A stretch of DNA of 64,000 nt from a virus (IMGVR_UViG_2880395615_000010), one strand, 5' to 3'; counted from the first letter of the stretch, positions 17,166 to 61,457 are shown. Notes: a model not told the origin generated them from the sequence alone. A program made the numbers and translations.

Positions 17166-18194
17166 TTATTTCACCTGTACCACCACAAACTCATCCGGGT
17201 CCGGCAACACCATCAGCGGCGCGGACTGCGTCATGGTAAATTCACGGGCGGGATCCCCTACCGTCAGCCAGTGTTTCGGATAACGGGAAGAGGCCACCAC
17301 ACCTTCGGACAACGCCTGCGCATCCTGAATGGCACCATAGCAACGAATGCCCTCTGCTGCCGTATTCCCCAGGACCAGCGAGCCCTCAGGCAGATAACGT
17401 TTTTCGGTACCGTCCTCTGCCACATAAGACGTTTTTGCCACCACAATGGCCAGATCGCCGTAATACCCTTTGAAGGACACCACCGCGCCCAGGTCTTTCA
17501 CCGCTGTTTCGAGTTGCGAATTAGAGCCGCGACGGGTATCCAGTTTTTCGCGGAACAATTTAAAGCCATTCAGCAGACGCCAGACGGTACCGTCCATAAT
17601 GGCAATATTCACAAGACCGCTGGCCTGGTCGCAGTAGAGGTCAAGATCATGTGTAGGATCGAACGTGTCACGATCCTGTTTTGACCACTCCTTACCACTA
17701 CCCTGAGTGATGTTATTCTTCGTCGACCTGCCAAAATCGACCTCAATTTTCTCGAACTGGTCTCCTTCCATCGTGTATTTGCCATACAGCACGGCATTCA
17801 CCGCCTGCATTTCTTCCACCTGGACAATGGCGTGCTCTTCCTGTTTGAGGTTATCAGTGATGATACGCAGACGACGGTAGGCCGGGTCGTTCAGCTGAGC
17901 CGGATCTTCACCGGGAAGACGCTCAACCGCCTGCTGGTAATTAAATTCGTGTTTCGGCTTGACGTAGCCCGGACGTAACACGCGGGTTTCACCACCACGA
18001 TGACGCAGCACTTTTCCTTCAACAACCGGGGAGACATAGGCCGCCACCGGCGTTTTTCCGGTAATTTTGTCCAGCATCACCTCTTCGGTATGGAAATTCA
18101 CCGTACGGCGGAAAAACAGCTCCAGAAACAGCGCACGAAATTTCACTTTTTGTTCGGTATAACCGAGTAACTGGCGGGTCGTAAACAATCCCAT
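17166..18194 (-). CDS. E: Major capsid protein E, 342 aa
   Basis: Strong resemblance to lambda E from memory (GYVKPKHE..., ...DPAREFTM.QSAPLM...). Confidence 0.9.
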   Translation of the reverse strand: MGLFTTRQLLGYTEQKVKFRALFLELFFRRTVNFHTEEVMLDKITGKTPVAAYVSPVVEGKVLRHRGGETRVLRPGYVKPKHEFNYQQAVERLPGEDPAQLNDPAYRRLRIITDNLKQEEHAIVQVEEMQAVNAVLYGKYTMEGDQFEKIEVDFGRSTKNNITQGSGKEWSKQDRDTFDPTHDLDLYCDQASGLVNIAIMDGTVWRLLNGFKLFREKLDTRRGSNSQLETAVKDLGAVVSFKGYYGDLAIVVAKTSYVAEDGTEKRYLPEGSLVLGNTAAEGIRCYGAIQDAQALSEGVVASSRYPKHWLTVGDPAREFTMTQSAPLMVLPDPDEFVVVQVK

Positions 18195-26865: not shown

Positions 26866-27855
26866 TTATATACGTCCTTTAAGATAAGTCAGTCCTGGAT
26901 GAAACCAGTAAGCCGGCACTTTTTTAAAGGGCGGATTATCAAAATCACGAAGAAGAGCCTCCCGCACAACTGCATCCTTGTCCGCACCACTGGCCAGCGC
27001 TTCAATCTCAGCAGCTATCTGCAGATATCCCATGCAACGACCAATGCACTTCATCAGCCCCTGCTTTTTATTGTTCTTCAGGTAATCAATGGCAAATTCA
27101 ATGAGCTCCTCACTATGCTGGTGCGATGGCGGTGTTACTTTTCCATTTTCTGAGATGGTTATTTTCCCAGCATCACCGGATACAACAAAGGATGGCCGGT
27201 TACACTCCCATTCCAGGTCACTGAAATTATCATTATGAATACTGAAACACTCTGCGAGATTTCTGCTCATCACTTTCCGGCAATAATCGTAAAACGCAGC
27301 AAACTGCTCATCGCGGCGTTTTTTTTCAGGCTGCTGAAGATGCTCTTTCAACCATGAAGCGCAGCTTAGATTCGCCGCGCGATCAGGAATAGCTTCTTTC
27401 ATTTCGTCTGCTGCAAGCACCTCATTTTTTGTTGGGGTGCTTTTTTTCAATTCAGCGATATAGCACTCCAGTTTTTCAATACGCGATTCAACATCATCTT
27501 TTTCTGACCGCAGTGTTGACGGCGGCATCTTCAGAGAACAAGTAATTCTTCCCGGTAGCTTTCCTTTGTAGGTTATCAATACATCCTGCGCATCTAAAAT
27601 TACGGGGCGCTTTTCCGGTGACGGTTCATCCCCTTCGCATAACCCGGCAACAATATCCATGAAAAACTGCTTCGCCTGTTTTTTCGCCTCAGCTTCGTAG
27701 AACTCCAGCGTGGCACCTTCAGTACGGTCAAGACTAATCGCCACATGTGGCAACAACAACGACGGATGCCCGCCAATTTCAAGTGCCACAGTAACAGCAA
27801 TCTTATCCGGGTAATTATTTATCTCTTTAACAACCAGTTCGTATTTTTTCTTCAT
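26866..27855 (-). CDS. Uncharacterised 329-aa protein inserted between holin and endolysin
   Basis: Uninterrupted ORF tightly packed between S and R; no family recognised; no TM segments evident. Confidence 0.6.
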   Translation of the reverse strand: MKKKYELVVKEINNYPDKIAVTVALEIGGHPSLLLPHVAISLDRTEGATLEFYEAEAKKQAKQFFMDIVAGLCEGDEPSPEKRPVILDAQDVLITYKGKLPGRITCSLKMPPSTLRSEKDDVESRIEKLECYIAELKKSTPTKNEVLAADEMKEAIPDRAANLSCASWLKEHLQQPEKKRRDEQFAAFYDYCRKVMSRNLAECFSIHNDNFSDLEWECNRPSFVVSGDAGKITISENGKVTPPSHQHSEELIEFAIDYLKNNKKQGLMKCIGRCMGYLQIAAEIEALASGADKDAVVREALLRDFDNPPFKKVPAYWFHPGLTYLKGRI

Positions 27856-27859
27856 CGCT

Positions 27860-28066
27860 TTAGTCTCCCCGCGCCGTCTTACGGCGGTCCTCCCTGATTT
27901 TGAAATACAGGTTAGTCAGATACGTCAGCAGGCCAAACAGCAGACTCCCCAGTACACCTATTGCCACCCACTGGGACGGAGAGACTTTGTCCAGCAGCTG
28001 CAGTAACCAGTATCCCGTCCCCACCGCTGACGTGGTGTATGACACACCCGTTGTGATTTTTTCCAT
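27860..28066 (-). CDS. S: Class II holin (phage 21 S-like pinholin), about 68 aa
   Basis: [63 protein letters not shown] resembles S21; the ORF-track start at 28135 may give a longer form. Confidence 0.8.
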
Positions 28067-28321
28067 CTGATGTATGTCTCCGTCACCGCCGACAGAAAAT
28101 GAAAGTAAAGGAAAACAAAAAGCCGCCAGTGTCACCCACTGACGGCCAACTCCGGGAGCCGTGATTATGGCATTCAGGCTCTGCTAAAAATGCCAGATAA
28201 CATTCCGACCAACCCCTGATTCAGGTTATAAATGACACAATATCTTGACAACATCCGTCACTGTCTGTCAGAAAATGTACTGCTAAATATAAGTATCATG
28301 TGAAGTACATCTACCCGTTTT

Positions 28322-28357
28322 AGCCAGCGTCCTTCAGAGTGGGCGCTGGCTTTTTTT
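28322..28357 (+). terminator. Intrinsic-terminator-like hairpin with T7 tract (plus-strand orientation)
   Basis: 8-bp stem agccagcg/cgctggct, 14-nt loop, then ttttttt. Confidence 0.4.
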
Positions 28358-28358
28358 A

Positions 28359-28733
28359 TTATGCTGCCGGTGCATTTATCTCCAGCATCAGACTTTCTAT
28401 CTCAACGCCATACGCTGCATTTTTTGTAACATCCGTCAGCGTCAGCGCATTCAGTCCCAGTGTCAGACTGTCTTTTATAACCTGGAATGCCGGGCCAGCC
28501 ACTCCATTCAGTTTCGGAGTAACCGTGGCACTGCCGGCGGTGAACACCAGCTCCAGCGTCTGCCAGTCGTTACCGTAATCGCCGAACTCCCCCAGCTTCG
28601 TGTTTCCGGCTTTCCTGTGATGCATCAGATTCACTCTGCCGTCAGTGGTCTGAGTGAAGTACGACATCAGGAACGGATCCCCCCAGCAGCTCATCCAGAA
28701 TGGCATCCACTTCAGCATCAAGACGCGCCTCAA
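28359..28733 (-). pseudogene. C-terminal fragment paralogous to the 217-aa protein at 29202-29855
   Basis: Translation ...AGNTKLGEFGDYGNDWQTLELVFTAG...VTPKLNG aligns with the C-terminal about 100 aa of the upstream protein; N-terminal part missing. Confidence 0.4.
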
Positions 28734-28833
28734 GATTCTGGCGGAGTTGCTGTTTCAGTGCGCTTCTGACTTCTTCAGAGCGCAGGACGTCCTTCACTGC
28801 TTCAGCAGTGACCAGAGATTTTATTTCTGACAT
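28642..28833 (-). CDS. Small charged helical protein, 63 aa
   Basis: MSEIKSLVTAEAVKDVLRSEEVRSALKQQLRQNLEARL...; 3' end overlaps the fragment above out of frame. Confidence 0.3.
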   Translation of the reverse strand: MSEIKSLVTAEAVKDVLRSEEVRSALKQQLRQNLEARLDAEVDAILDELLGGSVPDVVLHSDH

Positions 28834-29201
28834 GGGATTTTCTCGTTGAAAGGTGTTGTTAAGAAAGTTGCTACGAAATGAGAGGCTCTTCGGGTTTTGT
28901 TCCGGCTGACTGGCTGGCGCTGATTTTTTCCGCCGCCGCGGCATCAATCTTTTTGCGTATATAGTTCCGGATAACCTTATACCCGCCACTTACCAGATAT
29001 AACGTGCACACCACCGTGCAGAAATACAATAAAATAAGCTGTACAAATCTCATTATCCCTCCCGGTTATTGATATGGTGTTGACATCGTTAATACCTGTT
29101 GGTTAAAAAAGTGTCCTGCATGTTTTGCTTTGGATATAACGACATTTGCCGCCGGTTCTGGCTCCTTGTTTTCCCTGCCCCGGCGGCCTTTTTTTTCCTG
29201 C

Positions 29202-29855
29202 TTACGGGTTATTCACTTCCACTGTTATACTTTCAATCAGCACCGGATATGTCGCACCGCTAGTGATATCGGTCACGCGCAATTTGTCTGCCGTAAACGT
29301 GCCGACCGGTGACTGTGACAGCATGAACGGCGTCCCGTCCTTACCATCAATGACCGGCGTCACCTCAATACTGTTGTTACCGGCAAAACGGAAGCCCAGC
29401 GTATGCCATTCGTTATCAAATGCGCCGAATGACCCCAGCTTCGTGTTCTGACCAGCATTTCCCTTGTAGTACATCACATTAAGGTCTGTGGCATCGCTCT
29501 GTACGTAAAACGACGCCAGCAGGTTATGACCGGCATTACCTTCCAGTGTGACGCCCTGAGGCAGTGAAGAAACCGGCCAGTACAGCGCCAGTGCGTACTG
29601 ATTAGCTGTCAGTATGCCATCAACTTTAAAACGACAACTGATAAGCCCGCCCTTCTCCAGCAGGTCTGCGCCATTACCGGCATCATGCTGCATAAACCAC
29701 GAGGAACTTCCTGTCTGTTTGGTCCACCTCAGCGCCTTACCTCCTGCAGCACCTGCATCATCAACTACCAATGCACGCCCTCCTTCAGCTCCCCATCCCT
29801 GCGGATTCAGTAAACCACCTGACTCTGTTGCACGGTAATAAAGCAGCGTTGTCAC
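29202..29855 (-). CDS. Conserved prophage protein, 217 aa (possible beta-sandwich/carbohydrate-binding type)
   Basis: ATGA overlap with the upstream DUF1737-like gene; paralogous fragment downstream. Confidence 0.55.
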   Translation of the reverse strand: MTTLLYYRATESGGLLNPQGWGAEGGRALVVDDAGAAGGKALRWTKQTGSSSWFMQHDAGNGADLLEKGGLISCRFKVDGILTANQYALALYWPVSSLPQGVTLEGNAGHNLLASFYVQSDATDLNVMYYKGNAGQNTKLGSFGAFDNEWHTLGFRFAGNNSIEVTPVIDGKDGTPFMLSQSPVGTFTADKLRVTDITSGATYPVLIESITVEVNNP

Positions 29856-30085
29856 TGATTTCCCGTCCGTTGGCCACCATCCCCCGTGCCGGGCACAACC
29901 ACTGGCGTGGTCACATCCCCCTCCGCGGCAATCGCCTGCATCAGGGTATAAGGGGTTATGGCCACCGGACTACCAAACGGCTGCCAGCCCTCTTTCAGTT
30001 TGTGTGTCAGCTTTTCCGCAAGCTCTGACGGCGACGCCGCCTTGACAACATCATAGTGTTTAAATGCCATGGTTCTTTCCACCAT
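29852..30085 (-). CDS. Small DUF1737-like protein, 77 aa
   Basis: Resembles the small proteins found near the stx/nanS-p locus of lambdoid phages (from memory); coupled to the next gene. Confidence 0.5.
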   Translation of the reverse strand: MVERTMAFKHYDVVKAASPSELAEKLTHKLKEGWQPFGSPVAITPYTLMQAIAAEGDVTTPVVVPGTGDGGQRTGNQ

Positions 30086-30321
30086 CTAAAAAATAATTCT
30101 TTAAGATACCTGACATGTAATACACAAAACCACACCTTAAATAAAAACCTCATCATAAAGCAGATATGCATGGATAAACTACAAGACGAGGTATAAACCA
30201 CCCTGCATTTAAATAAATAATAAACAACATCAGAAAAATAATTCTGCCCTATGGTTTACATTCAAAATTATCATTTATACTTTTCAGAACAACACCAGCA
30301 AGGCATAAACAAGGAAACTAA

Positions 30322-30657
30322 ATGAAGTGGATTGTGATTGATACAGTTATCCAGCCATCATGCGGAATATCTTTTTCAGTCATATGGAGTAAAATAAAAT
30401 TAATAATCTGGTATCAATCGGATGCTTTCTTACCTCCTGAAAGTATATTTACACTGACTCACACAGGTATCATGCTCAATAACAAAGTGCTACCTGTAAC
30501 CATTTACAACGTAGTACCATTCAATAAAACATTCTGGAATTTAATCAAAAACAGCCAGGAATGCCCTACAAATACAGATAACGTATTGAATGAATGCTTT
30601 AATAACCGTTGCACTCTGCAAATATGTCCTTATGGACTAAAACAGCAAAGTCCATAA
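30322..30657 (+). CDS. Hypothetical AT-rich cysteine-containing protein, 111 aa
   Basis: SD AAGGA 7 nt upstream of ATG; candidate -35 TTTACA / -10 TATACT upstream; opposite strand to all flanking phage genes. Confidence 0.45.
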
Positions 30658-30699
30658 GGAGTTTACTCACATCTGACAAAATCAATATAAACAGCCCCT

Positions 30700-30722
30700 C
30701 CGGAGAGGGGCTGGAGAGTGGC
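30700..30722 (-). terminator. Hairpin likely terminating the tRNA transcript
   Basis: cagcccctctccggaggggctg followed by a T-rich tract on the minus strand. Confidence 0.4.
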
Positions 30723-30948
30723 GCTATGTGCCATTGCATGGTGCCGGGTGCCTCCCGGTGAATTCAGTACCAGCACCTGAATCCGCGATTATCCCATATA
30801 CCTACTCGCTGATTGCCCCTCCGCACAGGGGGATTCACCATGCCAGTTTCTTTTAACAAACTCCCCGCAAACCAGACAACAGTCAACCGCCTGAATTGTG
30901 AGACATTTAAAAAAAAAGCCCGCAAAAGCGAGCCAGGGAAAATAAGTG

Positions 30949-31025
30949 TGGCGCGTTGTACTGGATTCGAACCAGTGACCGATTGCTTAGAAGGCAATTG
31001 CTCTGTCCGGCTGAGCTAACAACGC
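30949..31025 (-). tRNA. argO: tRNA-Arg (anticodon UCU)
   Basis: Perfect cloverleaf: acceptor gcgttgt/acaacgc, anticodon loop CTTCTAA, T-loop TTCGAAT, encoded CCA. Confidence 0.8.
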
Positions 31026-31038
31026 AGGATACAGATAA

Positions 31039-31116
31039 TGGACCGCCTTCGGGGACCCGAACTCCGCGCAACCAGCTTCGAAAGCTGGCGCTCTTTCCTG
31101 ATGAGCTAATGGCGGT
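31039..31116 (-). tRNA. argN: tRNA-Arg-like (anticodon read as UCG), imperfect stems
   Basis: Perfect anticodon stem ccagc/gctgg with loop TTTCGAA, but one mismatch each in the acceptor and T stems. Confidence 0.5.
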
Positions 31117-31122
31117 ATGTGA

Positions 31123-31198
31123 TGGTGGCCCTTGCTGGATTTGAACCAGCGACCTGGCGATTATGAGTCGCTCGCTCTCACCACTGAGCTAAAGGGCC
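31123..31198 (-). tRNA. ileZ: tRNA-Ile2 (anticodon CAU, ileX/ileZ-like)
   Basis: ggccctttagctcagtggtgagagc...ctCATaa...ggttcaaatccagcaagggccacca, very close to E. coli ileX from memory. Confidence 0.85.
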
Positions 31199-31247
31199 GG
31201 GAGCAGAATAATAATGGTGCGTAATTAATTCTGCAATCTCATCCGTT

Positions 31248-32297
31248 TCAAACGATTAAATCCTGAACTTCCCTGACTGTCTGCTCAAAACGTCCGGTCT
31301 CCAGCTCAACACCAATCGCACGACGCCCCAGTGCCATCGCCGCTTTTACCGTTGAACCCGACCCCATGAAAAAATCCGCAACCAGATCACCAGGACGGCT
31401 ACTTGCGCTGATTATCTGCTGCAGCATTTCTGCCGGTTTTTCGCACGGATGTTTCCCTGGATAGTACTGCACCGGTTTATACGTCCACACATCGGTGTAC
31501 GGCACCTGCACCGTCACACCGAAATACCTCCGCAAATTTTTATATTCACTCAGCAGTTCCATATACTGCCGGTTCAGCTCACTGTATGTGCTGACCAGTT
31601 GGTAATGGGACTTTTCCAGTTCTCCCCGCTGATGTTTCTCTTCTGCCACCCGGGCAAACAGCGACTGTAATTTCAGATAATCGCTTTCGTTCGGTAGCTG
31701 CCACTGACTGGCACTGAACCAGTGCGACACCATGTTTTTCTTTCCTGTGGCATCTGCAATCTGTTTTGCCGTTATCCCCAGGGCCGCGCGTGCATCACGA
31801 AAGTAAGAAATCAGCTGGGCCATCACATGCTGTTTCAGTTCCCTGCCCTTCGCCTCATACCCGGCATCTTTCGGGCGATACGGCCCCTGATAATGTTCCG
31901 CGAACAGAATGCGCTCTGTGGCGGGGAAATACGCCCGCAGGCTTTCCTTGTTGCATCCGTTCCAGCGTCCGGACGGCTTCGCCCAGATAATATGGTTCAG
32001 CACACTGAAGCGTTCACGCATCATGATTTCGATATCAGATGCCAGGCGATGACCACAGAACAGGTAAAGACTTCCGGCAGGTTTCAGCACCCGCCAGAAC
32101 TGCGCCAGACACTGGTCCAGCCACTTCAGGTAATCATCGTCGCCCTTCCACTGGTTATCCCAGCCCTCAGGCTTCACTTTAAAGTACGGCGGGTCCGTGA
32201 CTATCAGGTCAACAGAATTTTCGGGTAACGACCGGATAAATTCCAGGCAGTCGGCGTTGATTAACTCACAACTGGATATTTTTACAGTATTAAGCAT
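31248..32297 (-). CDS. DNA methyltransferase (DPPY motif), 349 aa
   Basis: DLIVTDPPYF motif plus C-terminal AdoMet-binding DFFMGSGST. Confidence 0.85.
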   Translation of the reverse strand: MLNTVKISSCELINADCLEFIRSLPENSVDLIVTDPPYFKVKPEGWDNQWKGDDDYLKWLDQCLAQFWRVLKPAGSLYLFCGHRLASDIEIMMRERFSVLNHIIWAKPSGRWNGCNKESLRAYFPATERILFAEHYQGPYRPKDAGYEAKGRELKQHVMAQLISYFRDARAALGITAKQIADATGKKNMVSHWFSASQWQLPNESDYLKLQSLFARVAEEKHQRGELEKSHYQLVSTYSELNRQYMELLSEYKNLRRYFGVTVQVPYTDVWTYKPVQYYPGKHPCEKPAEMLQQIISASSRPGDLVADFFMGSGSTVKAAMALGRRAIGVELETGRFEQTVREVQDLIV

Positions 32298-49901: not shown

Positions 49902-50501
49902 TCAGAACTTATAACCGACACCCACGATGAAACCGTCAGTGCGCCAGTCGCCACTGCCGGAGCCTTCATAAGCGACATCAACGGCCACTGATTCGGTCGG
50001 GTTAAACTGCACGCCAGCCCCCCACGCCAGAGATGTGTTGCTGTAGCGAGCGTCATCACTTCCGGTCAGCACGTCGTGCGTTTTCCTCTTGTTGTCAGTT
50101 ACGCGAAGATAATCCCCGGAGAAAGTCGACACACGGCTGTAAGCCATACCCGCCATCGCATACGCGCTGAACCATTCATTCACGCGCACAGACGGCCCCG
50201 CCATCACGCTGAACCAGCGGTTACGCACGGAATCTTCATGCCAGCGGATATCGCTGTAACGGGTCAGCTGGCGATTCTTGTCTCCTGCATAGCTGAATGA
50301 CGTCACCAGCCCCAGTGTGTCCGTAAACTCATAACGGTATTTCACGTTAATCCCGTTCAGATCATCGCTGCCGGGAACGTTCGTCGAGGCATGAAGATAC
50401 CCCGCGCTCAGCGTGGACTGATGTTCAGATGCCCATGCAGGCGCACCGGATACAGCCAGACAAATGGCTGCGGAAAAAATGGCGGCATAAAGTTTACGCA
50501 T
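49902..50501 (-). CDS. lom: Lom-family outer membrane protein (copy B)
   Basis: Near-identical to the copy A lom. Confidence 0.85.
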   Translation of the reverse strand: MRKLYAAIFSAAICLAVSGAPAWASEHQSTLSAGYLHASTNVPGSDDLNGINVKYRYEFTDTLGLVTSFSYAGDKNRQLTRYSDIRWHEDSVRNRWFSVMAGPSVRVNEWFSAYAMAGMAYSRVSTFSGDYLRVTDNKRKTHDVLTGSDDARYSNTSLAWGAGVQFNPTESVAVDVAYEGSGSGDWRTDGFIVGVGYKF

Positions 50502-50568
50502 AATTACCTCTCGCTTTTCTGCAATAAAAAAGGCGCCATTTCTGGCGCCCGTATATGGGTTATAAAAT

Positions 50569-53500
50569 TCAGCTGATACTGATGCCTGCTGTGGATTTTT
50601 TCATCACCACAACCAGCAGATCGCTGATACTTGCTGTGGGATACCAGTTATTTACCAGCCATGCTGACACCGAAAACTCCAGCGTCATGTGACCGTGACC
50701 GGCAGGCATATCAATAACGCCACTGTAAATCAGCGTATTATCCAGCGCGGTACGGTTATAAATTTCAGCACCGTTTTTCCGCACTATCAGACGGCATGAG
50801 GAGTAAATATCAGTATGCTCTCTCTCATGTTTAGCGCCGCTGAATGCCACCGCCGGAATAACAATTTGCCGGTCAAACGGCTGATCGTCATAAACCCTGA
50901 CGGTAATGGTCCCTGATGGCCACCGCTCCGGTGCACGGGAATCCCGGGGGAAAGCTTTGCCCACTGTTTTAACGAGATCGCCTTCAATCTGGTTCGCGGA
51001 CAGTTTTCCCAGAACCCGACAGTTCTCGTTAATCGTGACGTTGTTGAGCGTCCCGGAATTCGCATTCACGTTACCGCTGATATCAGCATTTCTTGCGGTC
51101 AGACTGCCCTCCGGCGTCAGGGAAAACGTCGGGGGATTGCCGGACGAGGTGATACTCACCGCAAACAGCCGCTTCAGGAACACATCGTTCATGAACAACT
51201 GATTCCCCTGCGCCACAAATAACGGCGTGGTGTTGCCGTCCTCCGGGTTAATCATCGCAATACGGTCAGCCAGCAGCAGTATGTTGCTCAGGGGCTGGCC
51301 ATCAGTATCCTCAATCCCCGCTCCAATACCGGCAACATAGGGAATGCCGTCTTTCGTTTTTTGAACCTTCAGCATGTACAGCGCAGCCAGGTCATCATTT
51401 GTGTCCTTCTGCACGCGCTGTATCTGCTGTATGGTGGCGCTCTGGTCTTCCAGCGTTTTACTGACCGTCTGTGTGATTTCATTGCGGGTTTCGGTGATGG
51501 TGGTCTTCATCTCCGCCATCTCATCCGCAAGCTGGCTGTTGTCTATCAGCTCCCACAGCCCCTGAGCCAGATGCAGTTTTCCTATTTTTTCCCGGAAAAA
51601 TTCCAGATACCCTTCACCATCATTGCTGGGCTGCCCGCTGATTTCCACAAACGCAGATTTCCCCACCAGGTTGACGCTGCGCACGTAAAACCAGAAATCC
51701 TTCCCGGGCTTAATGTGCGGGCCGGATACACTCCACTGACTGCCGGTCCCCAGATAACGGGCAGAGGTTTCCACCTGAGATATGTCTGCGATTTTTGTCT
51801 CCGAAAACCAGAACTCAAACTGTACCGTCGGGTCATACACCGCAAGACGCGGGACCGCTGTTATCTGAAAATAGCCCGGTGTCAGCTCAATCTGTGACGG
51901 CGCTGCCGGTGCGGCAATCCGGAACGATACCGACGCCGGATCGCCCTGCTGCCCCCACGCATTTACCGCCCGGACTGTCAGCCTGTAGTTCCCCGGCGCC
52001 AGTTGCGTGAAGCGGTATGTGGTTTCCGTCGTCCGGGCCGTGCTGACCAGCCGCTCACTGCCGTCATCCGCGACCACGGTCAGGCGAAGCATAAAGCTCA
52101 CGCCCTTCACCACCTTCGGCGTGTCCCATTTCGCCTGTGCCAGATACTGACCGTCAGCCGCGCTCACCTCCACCGTCAGGTGCTGCACTGCCGGTGGAAT
52201 AACGCTGTTCAGGGTGCCTGACTGCGGCTCAAAGCTGGCCCCGTTATCCACGATGGCTTCTTTTTCCGGTACGTGCTGCACCGCCGTGATGGCAAAGGTG
52301 CCGTCCGTGTTTTCCCGGATGGAGACACAGCGGAACAGGCGACGACGCAGTGACGGCAGGGAGAGTCCCCATACACCGTATGTCTCCACACCATCAGGCA
52401 GGGTGCTGACCTGTATCCGGTCCGGCGCGGGGTGTGCAGTGATGGCCACGCTCACCGGCTTACCGCTGCCGTTAATCAGGTTCACCGTGGCGGCACCTGT
52501 CTCCGGCAGGGTCACCTCACGGTCCAGTGTCAGGGTGCGGCTGGCGGCATCGATGGACAGGATACGTCCGCCGGTCATGGTCCCGGCATAGTCGTTATCA
52601 CAGATTTCAATAATGTCACCGGGTGTGTGACGCAGCCCCTGTGACCCGAGCGTGAAATCCACCGTCTGCGTTTCCAGCAGTCCGGTCTTTATCACCCACA
52701 GCCCGGCACGGTGGGCCTGACCGCGACTGGTGCAACCGAACGCATCCATCTTCAGCAGGTTGCGCCCGTAGCGCAGTATGGCTTCCGGGTCTTCCACCAG
52801 TTCCGTGGAGGTCTGCCAGCCGTTCTGCGGGTCGGTGTAATTCACCTCCACCGCCGTGTGGCGGTCCTTCAGGGCGCTGAAGCTGTAGCGAAACCCCACG
52901 CCGTTATCATCCACCACCACATCGCAGTTGGTGTACGGCCACACCACATCCGACGGGCGGTCCTGAACGAACGTCAGCGTCTGGCCGTTCCATACCGGCA
53001 TACAGCGCATCGCCGAGCAGAAATCACTGAGCACATCCCATGCCTTACGCTGTTGTGACAGGTACGCATTAAAGGTCATCCGCGGCTCGGTCCCCCCGAA
53101 ACCATCCGGCACCGTCTGGTCGCAGTACTGCGCAATGGCATACAGCGCCCATTTGTCCACGTCTGCCGCCCCCAGACGTTTTCCCATGCCGTAGCGCTGG
53201 TGAGTCAGCATGTCCCACAGGCACCAGGCCGGGTTATTGCTGTATGCCGGTTTCAGGCTGCCGTCCCAGATACCGCTGTAAGTGCGTTTTTCCGGGTCAT
53301 AGTTTGACGGTACCTGAATGATGCGACCGCGGATATGGTAGTTCACCGTCATCTGCTGGCCACCAAACTGCTCCGCATCCACCTGCAGCCCCACAATCGC
53401 CGTGTTCGGGTAGCACTGTTTCACATCGATGATTTCGGTGTATGACGACCAGAGCGTCTTATTCTGCAGCTGGTCCGGGGTGCTGTCCGCTGTCTCCCGG

Positions 53501-54045
53501 ACCATCCGGATGTTAAAGGGCCGGGGAGGCAGATTATCCAGAATCACCGACGCCAGGTACTGTGAGGTGGTCTTGCCGTTAATGGTGACATCCTTTTCCG
53601 TCACCCAGTTACCGTTACGCTGCAACTGAATCAGCAGTCGGACAGAAGAGGGATTACGGTCGCCCTTTGAGGTGGTCTCCAACAGTGACTGCACCCCGAA
53701 GGTGACCCGCAGGCGGTCAATGTTCGCGGATGTAATGGTGCGCGTCACCGGCTTTGCCTTCGTCACTTCCACGCCCAGTGCGGTTTCAGCTCCGGAGGAC
53801 TCAAAGCCTTCAGGTGGTGTCTGCTCCTGCTCCCCGGCGCGCCAGACCGCTGTCACACCATGTATCACAGGATTACCGTCCGTGTCCGTCAGCGGGGTTT
53901 TGTTCACCAGGATACTCTGCAACCCCTTCACCGGACCTTCAATCGGCCCTTCACCAATGGCATCAATCACGCTCATCATCTGCGTGGACTTAAGATTGTC
54001 CTTTGCCTCAACCGGCGTGTGCGCCCTGCCTCCACCTTTACCCAT
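50569..54045 (-). CDS. J: Tail tip host-specificity protein J (copy B), 1158 aa
   Basis: Co-linear with copy A J but the last about 130 aa differ. Confidence 0.9.
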
Positions 54046-54178
54046 AATGTTCCTCTCAATTGGTATTATTAATCGCAGTGATAGGATATTGCACAGCTAT
54101 TGCGCGATATCATCAGAACGCTGTTTGTTACCCTGTAACCAGCAAGCTCAGTCTGTTAACGGAATTAATGAGGGTTTT

Positions 54179-54706
54179 ATGAAATGTAAAATCATTGCTG
54201 CCATTGCCATGCTGACAGCAGCATCATGCGGATACGCAGCAGAACAGGAAGTCCCAATGAACCTTGTCAGTGCTGACGGAAAAGAAGTCAGCATTGGAAA
54301 AATAACCATTCAGGAGACCCCCTACGGTCTGCTGTTCACACCAGCCCTTCACTCTCTGTCTGAAGGCATTCATGGTTTTCATGTGCACGAAAAAGGAAAT
54401 TGCGCCCCGGCACTGAAAGACGGAAAACCGGTCGCAGCATTATCGGCTGGCGGTCACTTTGACCCGAAAAACACCGGCAAACATCTTGGCCCCTGGTCTC
54501 CGGATGGACACCTGGGCGACCTCCCTGCGCTGTTCGTGACGCATGACGGAAAAGCGAACTACCCGGTCCTGGCCCCGAGACTGAACTCATTAAAAGAGAT
54601 TAAAGGGCGTTCTCTCATGCTTCATGCTGGCGGTGATAACCATCATGACCATCCGGAGCCCCTGGGCGGTGGTGGTGCGAGAATGGCCTGCGGCATCATT
54701 CAATAA
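54179..54706 (+). CDS. sodC: Periplasmic Cu,Zn superoxide dismutase SodC, 175 aa
   Basis: Signal peptide then [11 protein letters not shown]...GGHFDP...GDLP...[12 protein letters not shown] motifs; SD GAGGG; only in copy B. Confidence 0.85.
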
Positions 54707-54713
54707 TCAGTCA

Positions 54714-54742
54714 GGTAAGGGGCGGGCCCCTTACCTTTATTC
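54714..54742 (+). terminator. Intrinsic terminator after sodC
   Basis: ggtaaggggcgggccccttacc followed by tttatt. Confidence 0.55.
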
Positions 54743-54896
54743 CTCAGGACGATAAATCCTTTCTCCCTGAAAAGAACGGCACATCCTCCCTCTCTGAGTT
54801 AATGTTTTTGTCGTGACATAAGAATAATTCCTTACACTCAATCTTCGTAACGCTCCCGCAGTTCCTGTCCGTGAGCACTGCGGGATTTTTTCGCTT

Positions 54897-55577
54897 TTAT
54901 GCCTGCCGCCCGATAACCACCACCTTCCCGCCCCCGCCTTCATCACGGGTGCTGATGTCCTGGGAGATTCGCCGGGAGCCAACCAGCATTTCACCGTAAG
55001 GCACCGGCATCGGGTTCCCCTGGGCAATCATGTTATCCAGCGACGAAAAGTACGTGTTCTGTTTACCGTTATCCGTTGCCCTGTATTCCGGTGTTTTTGG
55101 CTTCGGGGCAAGCATCTGAGCCACACCACCCAGTATCATGCTGGCACCCAGTGAAAACAGCATCGTGGTGGCAGAAAAACCGCCGGCACTCAGCGCTGCA
55201 CCCCAGGCTGCCATCGATGCTCCGGCCGTGAAGAAAGAGCCCACGATGGCTGCCGCCCCCAGCACAATCTGCAGTCCACCCTTTCCGGCCCCGGCCAGTC
55301 GCGGCACAATATGGATGACCGCCCCCTCACCCAGCTGTTCGTGAAGACGGGCGTACACCGCCTCCGGTGCCGTGTCCTCACCGCGAATACGTATCTGGTA
55401 CCAGCCTTCGTTCATCTGACGGCGGAATCCCGGCATCTGCATCGACAGGGCACGGATGGCTTCCGCTGCCGTGTTCACATACAGGCTGAGGCGGCGGCCA
55501 AATCGTTGCAAATCCCCGTGAAGGCAGATGCGTGCCAGTGGCGGTGACGCCAGAGGGAGTGTGTGCGTCGCTGCCAT
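54897..55577 (-). CDS. I: Tail assembly protein I (copy B)
   Basis: Homologous to 8844-9515. Confidence 0.8.
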   Translation of the reverse strand: MAATHTLPLASPPLARICLHGDLQRFGRRLSLYVNTAAEAIRALSMQMPGFRRQMNEGWYQIRIRGEDTAPEAVYARLHEQLGEGAVIHIVPRLAGAGKGGLQIVLGAAAIVGSFFTAGASMAAWGAALSAGGFSATTMLFSLGASMILGGVAQMLAPKPKTPEYRATDNGKQNTYFSSLDNMIAQGNPMPVPYGEMLVGSRRISQDISTRDEGGGGKVVVIGRQA

Positions 55578-56218
55578 TTATCGGTATACCTCTCTCGTTT
55601 GCTCAGTTGTTCAGGAATATGGTGCAGCAGCTCGCCGTCACCACAGTAAATGGCGGCATGATTCGGCACCGATGAACCAAAACAGCACAGCAGCACATCG
55701 CCCGGTTGTGCTGATGACAACGGCACCTGATACAGCCCTGTGGCCTCCAGATTATCCAGATAGAGATTCTGACCGTGACGCCACCAGTCATCCCCGCGAT
55801 GAAAATCCGGCATCTCAATCCCCGCCAGATGATAAGCATCCCGGAACAGCGTGTAACAGTCCGTCACCCCGTGCTCAAAGCGCCGTCCTGTCAGATGTGG
55901 CACACAGCGGAATTTATGAATTTCCCCCCGGCAGACCAGCCACCAGAACAGTGCACTTTTTATCTGCAGCCGCCGGTCGGCCTCGCTCAGCCAGGGCAGA
56001 CCACCGGGATGACTGTGGACCAGTGCCACAATCTCCCCCTGCATCTCTGCCCGCAGCCAGTCTTCCGGTGCGATACGAAAATACGCCTCCGGCTCTGCAG
56101 AGATATTCACACAAGGGATATACCGTTCCCCCTCCGGCGTGCTTATCACGAAGCCGCACGACTCCGCAGGCGCACACCGCCGGGCATGCGCCAGAATCGC
56201 TGATTCAGTCTGTGTCAT
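55475..56218 (-). CDS. K: Tail assembly protein K (copy B)
   Basis: Start at MTQTESAILAHARRC as in copy A; the ORF-track N-terminal extension is probably not translated. Confidence 0.75.
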   Translation of the reverse strand: MTQTESAILAHARRCAPAESCGFVISTPEGERYIPCVNISAEPEAYFRIAPEDWLRAEMQGEIVALVHSHPGGLPWLSEADRRLQIKSALFWWLVCRGEIHKFRCVPHLTGRRFEHGVTDCYTLFRDAYHLAGIEMPDFHRGDDWWRHGQNLYLDNLEATGLYQVPLSSAQPGDVLLCCFGSSVPNHAAIYCGDGELLHHIPEQLSKRERYTDKWQRRTHSLWRHRHWHASAFTGICNDLAAASACM

Positions 56219-56228
56219 AAAACAGGAT

Positions 56229-56927
56229 TTACTGCGAAAGTTTATTGATGGAAAGGAAACCGCCAAAATTGACCGCCATGCCGCGCATCTCACACCCGCG
56301 CATGCATTTACTGCATCTGTCCTTCCGGATATCCGTGGTGGGGTTGTCGAACTCATCCGCCACTGCCGGACCGTTATACCCGCATTCATCGCCCCGGTAA
56401 TCCCACATACAGGTGTTCGCCAGCATGATGCGACCGGGAAACAGCGCCCCGTCCGTCTCCGTCGGTGTCGCCAGCACAAACGAGGCCGTCATGGCCGTCA
56501 GCGATGACATCTGCTCCACCACCCACCGGTCCGTCAGCTCCTGCTCAGGGTCTGCCTCAGGATTGCCTGCCACAAAATTCACCGCATCCAGAAAACGGGC
56601 ATACACCCGGCGGCGGACCACCGTGGCCCCCACCAGGCTCTGCAAATCCTCCGCCATCCCGGTGACAAGGCCGAAAAGATTGGACACCGTCAGCGACGGG
56701 CGGGCACTGCTGCCCTTTCCGTTCATCTCAAAGCCGCTGCCCTCAATCGGGTACGCCTGATATTCACGCCCCTGCCAGGTCACCGCCTCCCCTTTTTCAT
56801 TCAGCTCATTGCAGAAAAAATACCGCTCACCACCCTGTACCGTCAGGTCGATTTCCCAGAGTACCACCCGCGGTGACTGCTCTGATTTAACCGACTCGTT
56901 CAGACTTTCTTCGTGAATATCCTGCAT
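56229..56927 (-). CDS. L: Minor tail protein L (copy B)
   Basis: Homologous to copy A. Confidence 0.85.
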   Translation of the reverse strand: MQDIHEESLNESVKSEQSPRVVLWEIDLTVQGGERYFFCNELNEKGEAVTWQGREYQAYPIEGSGFEMNGKGSSARPSLTVSNLFGLVTGMAEDLQSLVGATVVRRRVYARFLDAVNFVAGNPEADPEQELTDRWVVEQMSSLTAMTASFVLATPTETDGALFPGRIMLANTCMWDYRGDECGYNGPAVADEFDNPTTDIRKDRCSKCMRGCEMRGMAVNFGGFLSINKLSQ

Positions 56928-57256
56928 CAGTTCACCACCTGCTTAAACTCGGCACTGAATTCAACCCGCAGCATGCGAACCCGTGATGACCAGGCGGCAC
57001 AGGTCACCTTTATCTGCCGCCAGGCATAAGGCGGTGTCCACAGAAACGCCTTCCAGCCACCGTGCTCTGCCAGGAATGCCTCCAGATGTCGGGCCTCCTC
57101 CCGGGTCACGGAAAGCGTCACACGGTATGTTTTCAGGTCAGCATTCAGCCCCGCCGCCATACGCTGCGAATACCCGTCACCAAAACGCACTTCACGCACC
57201 GATGGCTGCGAGTTCACCTCCATATCCGGCTTCACTTTCCAGCGAAATGTTTTCAT
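56927..57256 (-). CDS. M: Minor tail protein M (copy B)
   Basis: Homologous to copy A. Confidence 0.85.
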   Translation of the reverse strand: MKTFRWKVKPDMEVNSQPSVREVRFGDGYSQRMAAGLNADLKTYRVTLSVTREEARHLEAFLAEHGGWKAFLWTPPYAWRQIKVTCAAWSSRVRMLRVEFSAEFKQVVN

Positions 57257-59832
57257 CGCCTGCCTCCGGAAAAGACGCCGCCATCACGCATCTGCGCCTG
57301 AATCTCATCCTGCGCCCCCTTGCGGGCCATGTCATACACCGCCTTCATCAGCTGCGGCCCCGCCTGTCCGTTGGAGCCGTCGTTCTGAATCACCACGTGA
57401 TTGTTCTGATTAAAATTAATGCCTTCCGTCCGCCGCATCTGCGCCGGACTTCCGGCACCGCCCACATAACCACCTTCCGCATAGCCCCGCATCAGGCGGT
57501 ACAGGTTGCCGACGCCAATCCGGCTGGTTGCCTCCTTCGTGAAGACAAACTCCCCGCGATGAACAATCCCCGCAGGCTCATATTTGCCGCCCGTCCCCGT
57601 AAATCCCCCGGTCGCGAAATGGAAGTTCGCCGCCGCAGCCTGAATGGCCGTCCCCGTGGAGGCAGACGCCCCACCACCGAAAGCACCACCAATGGCGCTG
57701 CCGATACTCCCGACAATCCCCACCATTGCCTGCTTAAGCAGAATTTCTGTCATCATGGACAGCACGGAGCGGGTGAAGCTGCGCCAGTTCTGTTCACTGC
57801 CGGTCAGCATCACCGCCATATTCTGTGCAATACCGTCAAAGGTCTGCGTGGCCACGCTTTTAACCTGCGAAAAACTGTCCGTCGCACTTTCCGCCCACTC
57901 GCCCCAGCCGGACTTCAGCCCGGCCATCCAGCTTCCACGAAGCTGCTCCTCCGCAGACCAGGTGTTCTTCAGTGCCGATGTGGCCTTCGCCAGCGCAGCC
58001 GGATTATCACCGTACACGTCACGAAGGCGCTGCTCTTCCGACTCCCGCTGCGCCTGACGGTCGGTGAGGCCCCGCGCCTGGGCACTGATTGCCGCCTGCT
58101 TCGCACTCTGCTGCTGTTCAAACCGCGCCGCCTGCTGTGCCAGCTCATTCAGCCGTTTCTGGTGTTCAACTTTGTCTCCCAGCTCAGCCAGCTGGCGTTT
58201 GTACTCCAGCGTCTCTTTCTCATGGGTCAGCAGGGATTTTTCCTGCTCAGATAACTGCCGTTTCGTGGCTGCCTCTTTCAGGACCGCATACTGATTTTCC
58301 GCTTTCCATAAATCGCGACGCTGCTGGCTGATTTTCTCATTCGCACCGCTGTGTTTTTCCAGCGTCCGGAGCTCGGTTTCAAGCGCCAGCAGGGCAGCAT
58401 GCGCCTGGTCTTCCTGACGCTCACCGGCTGACACTTTGACTCCTGACGACTTCGGCTTTTTCAGCGTCGATTCATAATCCTTTTTCGCCGCCGCCATCAG
58501 CGTGTTGTAATCCGCCTGCAGGATTTTCCCGTCTTTCAGGGCCTTATTCAGTTCTTCCTGACGGGCGGTATATTTCTCCAGCGGCGTCAGCAGACGCTCA
58601 TACGCCTTCTGCGCCTCTCCGGTATACTTCAGCTGTGATGCGTCCCGTTCGGCCCGGTCCCTGGCGGCCAGTTCACCGGCTTTTTCCATATCCGACTGCA
58701 GCGTGGCCGCTGCCAGCCCCAGACGGGCATTTTCCCGGTCATTCCATGCGCCCTGAAGGTTGGCCCGGAAAGAGGCGGTTTTTCCCCGGCGCTGGCTCCG
58801 GCTCTGGTACCACTGCCATTTTTTATCTGCCTCATCAAATGCCTTCTGTGCACTGGCGAGCATATCCGCTGAGGACTCAGGACGACCGATATCCAGAATG
58901 GCATCCCACATCGATTTGAATGCCTTCCCTGTTTTATCCGCCCAGGTCTCCAGTGTTCCCATGTTTTCTTTCAGGCGACGGGTCTGCTCATCAAAGCCTT
59001 TCGTGGCGATATCGTTCGCCGCCTGCAATGCCCCGGCCTCGTCTCCGGAACGCTGCAGCTGTGCAACATACGCAATCTGCTCTGCCGTCACGTTACGGAA
59101 CTGGCGCGCCATCGCCATCAGTCCCGACGTCGGGTCGGTGGTCAGTTTTCCGAAAGCCTCTGCCACCTTGTCCACCTCCACACCGGATGCAGAAGCAAAA
59201 CGCGCGACACTCTGGTTGATGGCATCAAACTGTTCACCACCACGCACACCGGCATTCACCAGGGCTGCCAGTGACTCACTCGCCTGGTTAAACGTCAGCC
59301 CTGCGGCCTGTCCGGCTCTGGAGAGCGTCAGCATGCGATCGGCAGTCAGTCCGGACTGATTACCGGAAAGAACCAGGGTTTTATTAAACGCTGAAAGCGT
59401 GGAATCCCCCTGGTACCAGGCGTACGCCAGCGCACCTGTCGCCACCGCCAGCGAGGTGACCCCGACCATCGGCAGGGTGATCGCACCGGCAAGTCCCCTG
59501 AACATGGGGATCATCCCGCCGAAGGAGTCCTTCACCTGACCGCCCTGTTGCAGCAGGATCAGCCAGGGATTCTGACCACCGGCAAGCTGCGTGGCGATAT
59601 CCGTAAACTGTGCGGGCAGGGTTCGCATGGCCGCTTTATACTGCCCGACGGAAATCCCGGCTTTTTGTGCAGCCAGCGCCTGACGACTCAGGTTCTGCTC
59701 AACAACACCGGCGGTTTTTCTGGCGTCAGTCTCCAGTCCGGAAAAATGACGCCTTACCCGGCTCATCTGCTCATCGAAACGGACCGCATCCAGACTCAGG
59801 TCAATAACAAGATCACCAACCGGCTGGGACAT
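57253..59832 (-). CDS. H: Tail tape measure protein H (copy B), 859 aa
   Basis: Homologous to copy A. Confidence 0.9.
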   Translation of the reverse strand: MSQPVGDLVIDLSLDAVRFDEQMSRVRRHFSGLETDARKTAGVVEQNLSRQALAAQKAGISVGQYKAAMRTLPAQFTDIATQLAGGQNPWLILLQQGGQVKDSFGGMIPMFRGLAGAITLPMVGVTSLAVATGALAYAWYQGDSTLSAFNKTLVLSGNQSGLTADRMLTLSRAGQAAGLTFNQASESLAALVNAGVRGGEQFDAINQSVARFASASGVEVDKVAEAFGKLTTDPTSGLMAMARQFRNVTAEQIAYVAQLQRSGDEAGALQAANDIATKGFDEQTRRLKENMGTLETWADKTGKAFKSMWDAILDIGRPESSADMLASAQKAFDEADKKWQWYQSRSQRRGKTASFRANLQGAWNDRENARLGLAAATLQSDMEKAGELAARDRAERDASQLKYTGEAQKAYERLLTPLEKYTARQEELNKALKDGKILQADYNTLMAAAKKDYESTLKKPKSSGVKVSAGERQEDQAHAALLALETELRTLEKHSGANEKISQQRRDLWKAENQYAVLKEAATKRQLSEQEKSLLTHEKETLEYKRQLAELGDKVEHQKRLNELAQQAARFEQQQSAKQAAISAQARGLTDRQAQRESEEQRLRDVYGDNPAALAKATSALKNTWSAEEQLRGSWMAGLKSGWGEWAESATDSFSQVKSVATQTFDGIAQNMAVMLTGSEQNWRSFTRSVLSMMTEILLKQAMVGIVGSIGSAIGGAFGGGASASTGTAIQAAAANFHFATGGFTGTGGKYEPAGIVHRGEFVFTKEATSRIGVGNLYRLMRGYAEGGYVGGAGSPAQMRRTEGINFNQNNHVVIQNDGSNGQAGPQLMKAVYDMARKGAQDEIQAQMRDGGVFSGGRR

Positions 59833-60226
59833 ATCTCACACCTCCGGAAATCCCCGCTGAAGCCATCATTAATGCGACATCATCCTCGCTGACATCCGCC
59901 ACATCCGCAGACGATAAAATCTCACGCCCTCCGTCCCCACCAAACCGGACGCCTCCGGCAAGTCCTGCCGCTTTCTGCATCAGCATTTTTTCCTCATCCG
60001 GCATCTCCGTCTGCGCTTCCTCACGCCGGGGGGCAAGCAGACTGAAATCAGAGGGATGCATATCCGGATCGCAAAAAAACAGGCTGAGTACGGCGTACGT
60101 CAGCCCGGAAAAATGCATATCCAGTTGGGTATCGAGAAAATAATGCGTACGGTAAAAATGTCGCCAGTCGGCATATTCGGTGGATGTCATCCCGGCAAGC
60201 ATGGCGCGCCAGTCAGGCCTCCCCAT
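59813..60226 (-). CDS. T: Tail assembly chaperone T frame (copy B)
   Basis: Homologous to copy A; slippery ctttccc at 60271-60277. Confidence 0.7.
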   Translation of the reverse strand: MGRPDWRAMLAGMTSTEYADWRHFYRTHYFLDTQLDMHFSGLTYAVLSLFFCDPDMHPSDFSLLAPRREEAQTEMPDEEKMLMQKAAGLAGGVRFGGDGGREILSSADVADVSEDDVALMMASAGISGGVRYVPAGW

Positions 60227-60252
60227 CTCACGCGCCAGTCTGAGGGCAAAAT

Positions 60253-60684
60253 TCAGCTCGCCGTCGAAGACTTTCCCGCAGAAAAATCATCATCAGTCAG
60301 CGCGTTATTTTTCGCCACTTCGGTGCTGTCAGTATCCGCATGAACAGCCCCGCTCATCCCGGACAGACGCAACACCACATCTTCCGCCCGGGCAATGGCA
60401 TCCGCAGGCCAGGTGGTGAGCACCTCCTGTTCGATCTGCATCACAGCCTCATTCATTGACGGTGATGCCGTTTTCTGCGGATGGTTATGCCACAGGGACA
60501 TCGCCACCAGAAACGCGCCGGTTCTGACGAGATCTTCCACGCTTACCTGCAGGTTGCCGCTGGATTCTGCCTGTTCTGCACGCCGTTTCAGGAGGGCAAG
60601 ATGCTCAATACGCTGCAGCGCAGACAATTCGGAAAGCGTGACGGACACACCGTTATATTCAAATTGTTCTGTTTTCAGAAACAT
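60253..60684 (-). CDS. G: Tail assembly chaperone G (copy B)
   Basis: Homologous to copy A. Confidence 0.8.
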   Translation of the reverse strand: MFLKTEQFEYNGVSVTLSELSALQRIEHLALLKRRAEQAESSGNLQVSVEDLVRTGAFLVAMSLWHNHPQKTASPSMNEAVMQIEQEVLTTWPADAIARAEDVVLRLSGMSGAVHADTDSTEVAKNNALTDDDFSAGKSSTAS

Positions 60685-60697
60685 GTATTACCTCCGT

Positions 60698-61450
60698 TTA
60701 CCCTGCAGCGCCCGCTTCAGTAACGGTGACTTCAGCCACTGCGGCGAACTGACCATTTCCGCTCACCACAGGGATCTGCACCTTACCTGTCGCCACGCCG
60801 TTTACCGTAATTGTCATATCTTTCACACTAATGGTGGCTTTCGACGGATCGGCGGAAACCGCTCTGAACGTCTTGTCGGTTGCACTTTCCGGCTCAAAAG
60901 AAACCGTCAGGGTGGTTGTTTTCCCTTTTGCCACCGTACCGGATGTCGGCGTCACCTTAATCGCAGTGACCGGCGTAATTTTGCTGCGTTCTTCCGCCAC
61001 GGAAGGTTTGCCCACGTTGGTCACTTTCACCGTGCGGGTGATCACTTCTTTCGCCGTCACGGCCTTACCGATACTGCTGACCCAGCCACGAAACACATCC
61101 ACCGTGCCGTTCGGAAAACGGATTTTATAGGCCCGCACATCCCCGCTTTCAAACCAGCCTATAAGCCCTTTCTGACCTTCTTCTCCCGGTTTCCAGGCCA
61201 GCGTAAAACTGGTATCTCCTGCAGACTTCTGCCCCTGCCCGGTCGCGGTCCAGTCCGCGTCTTCATCATCCAGGTAGTTATCATCGTAGGGTTCTGCCGT
61301 CATCTCGCCCGGCGTCAGATCCTTCACCTTAGCCAGTCGCAGCCAGTCATCGTCTGACAACGGGTTTGCATAGGCGTCACCCTGACCGTTATAAACCCAC
61401 AGGGTGGTACCGGCACCTTTTACCGGCGCCAGGGGATTTGGTGTTGCCAT
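60698..61450 (-). CDS. V: Major tail protein V (copy B)
   Basis: Homologous to copy A. Confidence 0.85.
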
Positions 61451-61457
61451 ATCGTCC

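Follow-up and report, generated by a model that had tools for sequence, protein, structure and literature searches.

The locus occupies positions 28359-30085 of a 64-kb window (the whole stretch of DNA analysed, 64,000 nucleotides) and lies in the late region of a lambdoid prophage, with all of its features on the minus strand. The gene order begins upstream with a DNA methyltransferase (32297..31248, minus) followed by three tRNAs (31198..30949, minus), and iraM (30322..30657) is encoded on the strand opposite to the other genes. The locus itself opens with a DUF1737 ORF (30085/30070..29852, minus; PF08410, E=1e-16) that reads as 77 aa from the ATG at 30085 or 72 aa from the ATG at 30070. A 217-aa ORF with a DUF6645 match (29855..29202, minus; PF20350, E=4.9e-70) comes next, then an intact 60-aa DUF1378 gene (29053..28871, minus; Pfam DUF1378, E=5.8e-40, full length), a 63-aa ORF that matches positions 1-57 of 75 of Pfam DUF826 (28833..28642, minus), and an ORF that overlaps the latter out of frame and matches DUF6645 positions 44-115 of 119 (28733..28359, minus; E=2.9e-9). 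Farther downstream lie a class II (P21-type) holin of a B-type lysis module (28066..27860, minus; Pfam Phage_holin_2_1, E=3.5e-32), a long YdfR-family ORF and a lysozyme. The initial annotation had already placed the 77-aa, 217-aa and 63-aa ORFs and the overlapping fragment here, and its description of the 77-aa product as DUF1737-like is borne out by the Pfam match. The DUF1378 gene was missing from it. A promoter scan of 27800-31300 found no minus-strand sigma-70-like sites and so gives no evidence of independent transcription; expression of the locus would depend on the late transcript.

NanS-p proteins are sialate 9-O-acetylesterases built of a DUF1737 domain, a SASA/SGNH catalytic domain and a lectin-like C-terminal domain. 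Their genes (933W L0105; phi24B vb_24B_21/gp84; RefSeq SASA family carbohydrate esterases WP_000143000.1 and WP_064234946.1) stand downstream of Q/tRNA/(stx) and upstream of DUF1378, DUF826 and holin. The locus holds the same position, in a lambdoid late region with the tRNA/stx region on one side and lysis genes on the other, and its synteny agrees with that of 933W, PV15-279 and 23CRST047. All three full-length proteins that we compared, from PV15-279 (645 aa, allele A), 180-PT54 (616 aa, allele B) and 933W (645 aa), have the order DUF1737-SASA-DUF6645, the SASA domain being a PF03629 match.

When complete E. coli genomes and phages were searched by megablast, window 28674..30070 matched, at 99.4-99.5% identity, regions of many O157:H7 and O103:H2 genomes that are longer by about 1.07 kb and carry annotations of a SASA family carbohydrate esterase, of DUF1378 and of DUF826. 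In phage 933W the matches are L0105 (nanS-p) and L0106, which lie downstream of stx2, at about 83% identity, and no phage record in the INPHARED set spans at least 80% of the locus. A wholly intact archetype is found in 23CRST047, which has the methyltransferase, three tRNAs, iraM, nanS-p (647 aa), DUF1378, DUF826 (89 aa) and holin in an order syntenic with the upstream half of the window. DUF1378 is the usual downstream neighbour of nanS-p allele A, and a single DUF1378 protein, WP_001213059.1, is common to the scarred genomes and to genomes with intact nanS-p. The intact 89-aa DUF826 gene occupies the same place in PV15-279 and 23CRST047. For allele B the neighbours differ: in 180-PT54 a 207-nt holin lies directly downstream of nanS-p(B), and in B-type prophages YdfR and lysozyme come after the holin.

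Compared with these intact genes, the locus carries two junctions, both of which were mapped by local BLAST and short alignments, as a global MAFFT alignment put the 5′ DUF1737 segment wrongly. The first, J1 (29873|29872), is a deletion of 1069 bp (356 codons and 1 nt, 3n+1) inside nanS-p allele A. On its 5′ side, the 198 nt at 30070..29873 (minus) match nt 1-198 of the allele A ORF with 97.5% identity (BLAST against the PV15-279 gene); they encode codons 1-66, comprising the whole DUF1737 domain and part of the linker, with 95.5% protein identity. On its 3′ side, 29872..28674 follows allele A from ORF nt 1268 through DUF1378 into DUF826 with 99.67% identity (BLAST). The nanS-p part of this segment (29872..29202, minus; 99.67% DNA identity) begins with the final two bases of codon 423 and runs through codons 424-645 to the stop, and tblastn gives 99.1% identity over residues 424-645. 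Direct comparison of the three sequences shows that the joint is blunt, with zero microhomology (GGTGGC|CAACGG). The A-specific linker TTPVVVPGTGDGG is kept in the 5′ remnant and the A-specific linker DVTTPVVVPGTGDGG runs up to the breakpoint, where B-type alleles have a different, shorter linker. Because both flanks are A-type, J1 is an A-to-A deletion and not a joint between the two alleles.

The J1 deletion covers codons 67-423, which is the entire SASA/SGNH catalytic domain including the GQSN block. Residues 67-423 of nanS-p are absent from the whole 64-kb window by tblastn with both full-length proteins, and a Pfam search found no SASA match in any ORF of the locus, in agreement with the earlier impression that SGNH motifs are lacking. 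The proposal of the initial annotation that the locus is the remnant of a single large nanS-p-type esterase that has lost its catalytic middle is upheld: alignment against full-length nanS-p proteins matches both their N-terminal and their C-terminal regions, and an intact 645-aa allele differs from the locus by the one missing block.

An intact nanS-p gene is a single continuous ORF of about 616-647 aa, and at this locus it is split into the 72/77-aa and 217-aa ORFs. Past J1 the DUF1737 frame reads QRTGNQ and ends at the TGA at 29854..29852, seven codons beyond the junction; in the original frame this translated tail (29872..29852, minus) corresponds to codons 423-430. The GTG at 29855 that opens the 217-aa ORF is the internal codon Val429 of the intact gene (...S-V429-T-T-L-L...), has only a weak Shine-Dalgarno-like motif (GGGA) ahead of it, and overlaps the TGA by 4 nt (GTGA). 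The two ORFs had been described as translationally coupled. The 4-nt overlap is literally there, but it arises only from the frameshifted reading at Val429, and since the shifted frame happens to meet a TGA overlapping that internal codon, the apparent coupling follows from the frameshift as a by-product. At 29864-29858 a G_GGA_AAT heptamer stands in the right register for a -1 shift into the frame of the C-terminal domain. The 90 nt downstream of it fold no better than shuffles (z=+0.77). A programmed -1 frameshift gene pair was rejected, because no stimulatory structure follows and the intact gene reads the heptamer as ordinary coding sequence.

At the second junction, J2 (28678|28677), codon 52 of DUF826 (of 89) is joined to nt 1532 of nanS-p allele B. 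The sequence is GGGGGGA|TCCGTT, in which a single shared A provides 1 nt of microhomology. Homology to intact DUF826 stops at 28678, after codon 52, and the 63-aa ORF is a truncated DUF826 gene made of 52 native codons (28833..28678) and 11 foreign ones. The foreign DNA is the 3′-terminal 320 nt of allele B (28678..28359, minus; residues 512-616 and the stop; 100% DNA identity). Window 28340..28678, which covers these 320 nt, has 100% DNA identity to the 3′ ends of intact genes annotated as SASA family carbohydrate esterase in many genomes, and at all 105 residues the fragment agrees with the 616-aa protein of 180-PT54. The module downstream of the fragment (holin, YdfR, lysozyme) is the same as that after nanS-p(B) in B-type prophages, and the holin also follows the fragment in DEC5B. 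The fragment represents about half of a jelly-roll domain. It cannot fold alone, because it has lost the domain's first half along with two of the four sugar-site positions, and it would be inert.

Two further observations can be made on this side of the locus. The holin at 27860..28066 marks the far side of the mosaic joint. J2 also creates a GGATCC (BamHI) site that is absent from both parents; a cloning artefact is not indicated, since neither parent has the site and the junction is found in seven natural isolates.

Both allele-A remnants retain complete domains. For the DUF1737 ORF the homologous start is the second ATG (30070), the in-frame ATG at 30085 lying upstream of it, and the domain is N-terminal as in NanS-p. 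The peptide matches phrog_2036 (67 positions) and the 217-aa piece matches phrog_3591 (265 positions) in PHROGs. The C-terminal DUF6645/lectin-like jelly-roll domain of NanS-p is complete in the 3′ remnant. The crystal structure PDB 6YP6 shows the C-terminal domain of phi24B vb_24B_21, a lectin-like jelly roll (Franke et al. 2020, J Struct Biol 212:107596, cited in PMC10462455). Its 218-aa chain, named NanS-p, and the 217-aa ORF can be aligned over their full lengths (E=5.4e-97). Identity to the corresponding domain of 933W NanS-p is 68.7%. The four aromatic residues proposed to bind sugar, given as Y510, Y515, Y540 and F611 (PMC10462455), are retained as Y87, Y92, Y117 and F187. Unlike the crystallised domain, the 217-aa product is the orphan frame of a frameshifting deletion and not part of an enzyme. 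The coding remnant of this domain has two base differences from the intact allele, both non-synonymous (T to I, H to Y), a number too small to prove anything. Genome entries named "DUF6645 domain-containing protein" are full-length esterases of 616-626 aa. Short DUF6645-only proteins in the large protein database searched are mostly partial by name, and the rest are unnamed or hypothetical assembly calls, including one 217-aa cluster from run assemblies; such entries say little about true single-domain genes.

The 72-aa product can be compared with gp84, the NanS-p of phi24B, which is reported in a 2026 preprint to decorate the capsid (bioRxiv 10.64898/2026.04.10.717836). According to the same source, its DUF1737 domain (residues 2-57) forms a hexamer on the central hexons of the T=9 capsid, gp84 is proteolytically cut between domains, DUF1737 alone staying on the capsid, and DUF1737 proteins are mostly single-domain. 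Hexameric binding of this kind is known only for phi24B. The 72-aa product holds the whole of this fold region. It differs from gp84 in that the loop around the Tyr42 "tooth" is three residues shorter, and from single-domain DUF1737 proteins in that it is a nanS-p truncation with a 6-residue out-of-frame tail. The 5′ break of J1 falls after residue 66, 15 residues beyond the end of the DUF1737 fold, and the 3′ break falls 6 residues ahead of the start of the crystallised domain. Because both breakpoints are in interdomain linkers, the two end-domains left by J1 are those that natural processing also sets free. The prophage that carries the scar has a capsid protein of the lambda gpE family, unlike the T=9 podovirus phi24B.

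Queries spanning J1 and queries spanning J2 gave full-length matches in an identical set of seven of 5426 complete E. coli genomes: D1, O157:H16 98-3133, O55:H7 DEC5B, MFDS1001074, O2:H16 BA92, Z1323HEC0355 and Z1323CEC0012. No genome in that set of 5426 has J1 only or J2 only. The structure is not a sequencing artefact, since these seven independent complete genomes share it, with 98.7-99.9% identity over the 2.1-kb locus and 99.5-100% across each junction. The two junctions occur together in one prophage lineage, which appears to have spread among strains of differing serotype.

In the four genomes for which RefSeq (PGAP) annotation was retrieved (DEC5B, D1, MFDS1001074 and BA92), all four pieces are called partial pseudogenes. 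This fits with the existence of near-identical intact homologues that differ from the locus by the disrupting lesions J1 and J2. Among the seven carriers, the 217-aa ORF is intact in six and the DUF1737 ORF in all. In BA92 an in-frame 264-bp deletion has removed residues 72-159 of the 217-aa ORF, the jelly-roll core, and in D1 an IS66-family element has inserted between DUF1378 and DUF826. Both changes are signs of relaxed constraint, in a sample of just seven genomes. MFDS1001074 keeps 151 bp of B-type intergenic DNA that is missing from the window. Inactivation of this accessory gene in a prophage has a precedent, as nanS-p alleles in Stx2a phages have been found disrupted by IS elements (PMC10462455). 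D1 resembles these cases in carrying its IS66-family element; in the window, by contrast, the gene was inactivated by deletion and illegitimate recombination, without an IS element.

By its sequence, the locus is unambiguously derived from the NanS-p family: it has the N-terminal DUF1737 and the C-terminal DUF6645, with 97.5-99.7% DNA identity flanking the deletion. It would fail as a functional esterase, because it has neither a SASA domain nor a continuous ORF, and it differs further from NanS-p genes in that DUF826 is fused to part of a second allele. The locus is very probably what is left of a phage accessory gene, nanS-p, that no longer functions and owes its present form to two illegitimate recombination events. 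It sits in the late operon of a lambda-like prophage, with the tRNA/iraM region on one side and the lysis cassette on the other. In one event, a 1069-bp deletion in allele A removed the catalytic domain and, being 3n+1, shifted the frame. What remains is a DUF1737 peptide of 72/77 aa and, in the old frame, an orphan C-terminal domain that opens at an internal GTG by chance. In the other event, a non-homologous join of DUF826 codon 52 to nt 1532 of an allele B from another lambdoid phage exchanged the original 3′ end of DUF826 and the lysis module for the 3′ end, holin, YdfR and lysozyme of the B type. Late transcription probably still yields the DUF1737 peptide from its native start, and the 217-aa domain is likely to be translated weakly, if at all.

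Several observations sit uneasily with a plain relic. Both surviving pieces of allele A are complete structural domains; both J1 breaks lie in interdomain linkers, which would be uncommon for a random deletion; the 217-aa ORF has stayed intact in all carriers but one and the DUF1737 ORF in every one; and, for the two domain ORFs, "non-functional" is a reading of the sequence. These facts could instead suit a functional variant without esterase, in which a stand-alone DUF1737 capsid-decoration protein and a lectin-like protein, the latter produced by termination-reinitiation at the GTGA, would mimic the two products of natural NanS-p maturation by proteolysis. The linker positions of the breakpoints favor such a variant, as do the near match of the 217-aa ORF boundaries to PDB 6YP6, the four conserved sugar-binding aromatics, the short PHROGs families that match each piece alone, and the reported behavior of gp84, which is cleaved into domains of which DUF1737 alone decorates the capsid, most DUF1737 proteins being single-domain (bioRxiv 10.64898/2026.04.10.717836). 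We nevertheless regard it as unlikely. J1 disrupts the frame, the GTG is simply internal codon 429 with a weak GGGA motif, the core of the 217-aa ORF is missing in BA92, and both substitutions relative to the intact allele are non-synonymous. Short DUF6645-only proteins are mostly partial by name or else unnamed or hypothetical, and the named genome entries are full-length. The capsid here is of the lambda gpE type, whereas DUF1737 binding was shown on the T=9 capsid of phi24B, and the lineage is rare (7/5426). Improbable, in our estimation, is also the specific claim that the prophage makes a free DUF1737 decoration peptide together with either a free lectin-like domain (by GTGA reinitiation) or a DUF1737-lectin fusion (by a -1 slip at GGGAAAT, 29864-29858). 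If true, it would mean that an esterase-less, mucus-binding NanS-p variant was retained and spread in seven strains of different serotypes.

The history of the second DUF6645 segment and the order of events can also be read in other ways. The initial annotation had noted that the fragment aligns with about 100 aa at the C-terminus of the 217-aa protein, and this is so: ORF 28359..28733 aligns to residues 109-217 with 38% identity (E=7e-19), a similarity much too strong to be due to chance. It went on to suggest that the C-terminal domain had been duplicated after the catalytic loss. Two DUF6645-type segments 0.5 kb apart in the same orientation would fit an in-situ duplication, but copies made in this way should be each other's closest relatives, and these are 37-38% identical in protein with only a weak 78-82% patch of DNA similarity. 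Each instead has a 99.7-100% identical counterpart in a different intact allele elsewhere. Since the second segment is 100% identical to allele B, and is joined to the shortened DUF826 gene on one side and runs on into the B-type holin module on the other, the duplication must be withdrawn, and we consider it very improbable. Equally remote is a single complex event, in which an A-type patch (C-terminal domain, DUF1378 and the 5′ part of DUF826) would have replaced the middle of a resident B-type nanS-p. This would account for J1 and J2 always occurring together with no intermediate among the 5426 genomes, a point that also leaves the order and independence of two separate events less certain, and prophages with iraM beside a B-like nanS-p do exist (e.g., MLI114). 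However, the 5′ flank of J1 has the A-specific linker (…DVTTPVVVPGTGDGG), which B-type alleles lack, and the archetype with intact iraM, nanS-p(A), DUF1378 and DUF826 exists in 23CRST047; the patch model was rejected on these two grounds.

As a decayed nanS-p gene, the locus is an ordinary pseudogene scar; features of this kind are already known, and the gene arrangement is not a new one. NanS-p esterase activity is a trait linked to growth on mucin 9-O-acetylated sialic acids, and the prophage would have lost this activity at the locus. Beyond annotation the scar has little import, although, as a natural domain-excision allele, it could help to separate the roles of the capsid-binding DUF1737 and the lectin-like domain. 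It also offers a base-resolved case of decay and mosaicism in a lambdoid late region by illegitimate recombination between co-resident phages. The window carries a second lambdoid prophage as well, whose genes for head and tail share 77-97% identity with their counterparts in the first, so co-resident phages able to recombine are at hand.

In the allele-B lysis module (holin, YdfR and lysozyme genes), a 329-aa ORF on the minus strand (26866..27855) has the holin on one side and the lysozyme on the other. The first ~100 aa of this ORF are YdfR/DUF1327, and in DEC5B, an E. coli O55:H7 genome with the same scarred nanS-p locus, the RefSeq annotation (PGAP) recognizes just this part, as a C-terminally truncated pseudogene. 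Over its full length, however, the ORF aligns with phrog_1085 (E=2.5e-180). The 3′ two-thirds of the ORF (26866..27560), the portion left without PGAP annotation in DEC5B, was found in 339 genomes. The pseudogene call appears mistaken, and the ORF probably encodes a genuine, long late protein of the YdfR family.

A strong terminator-like hairpin on the plus strand (28322..28351; 11 pairs, 8 of them G-C, then a T-run) is positioned just beyond the stop of the allele-B fragment, the remnant of a second nanS-p allele. Antisense transcription entering the late operon would be halted at this predicted hairpin.

The anti-adapter protein gene iraM (30322..30657, plus strand; WP_000871291.1 in RefSeq relatives), for which no Pfam match was obtained, is flanked by the phage tRNA cluster on one side and by nanS-p, the decayed sialate O-acetylesterase gene, on the other. 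The arrangement of iraM and nanS-p is common, occurring in 1379 genomes at a coverage of at least 80%. In Stx phages, the stx genes occupy the slot taken here by iraM. The first tRNA of the cluster (31123..31198, minus strand) is called tRNA-Met (CAT) by ARAGORN; RefSeq relatives label the same gene tRNA-Ile (ileZ-type), as in the Stx phage 933W. Under the tRNA-Ile label, the CAT anticodon is presumably lysidine-modified.

A full-length nanS-p-type gene also occurs in a different phage background. Genome L009 (NZ_OZ039818.1) carries this 626-aa gene (2501..4381), annotated as DUF6645 domain-containing, within a P2-like myovirus prophage and flanked by lysis genes (LysC) and tail genes, so the esterase module extends beyond lambdoid phages.

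The window holds two lambdoid prophages in the same orientation, at 1..~18000 and 48207..64000. Their structural genes are 77-97% identical across ~14 kb, a stretch that includes the tail genes and reaches to the major capsid region, near 17-18 kb in one prophage and 63-64 kb in the other, and thus provide ample substrate for inter-prophage recombination. The major capsid protein encoded at 17166..18194 belongs to the lambda gpE family.

A phage integrase (44633..45658) adjoins type III effector cargo, namely an AvrPphF-ORF-2-like (EspJ-like) ORF (46181..46930, plus strand) and a TccP/EspFU-like ORF (47255..48127, plus strand) with five EspF-type proline-rich repeats. This cargo beside the integrase points to a host of the EPEC/EHEC lineage. 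The EspF-type repeats are encoded by a 141-nt tandem repeat at 47507..48106, present in 4.3 copies with 97% matches.
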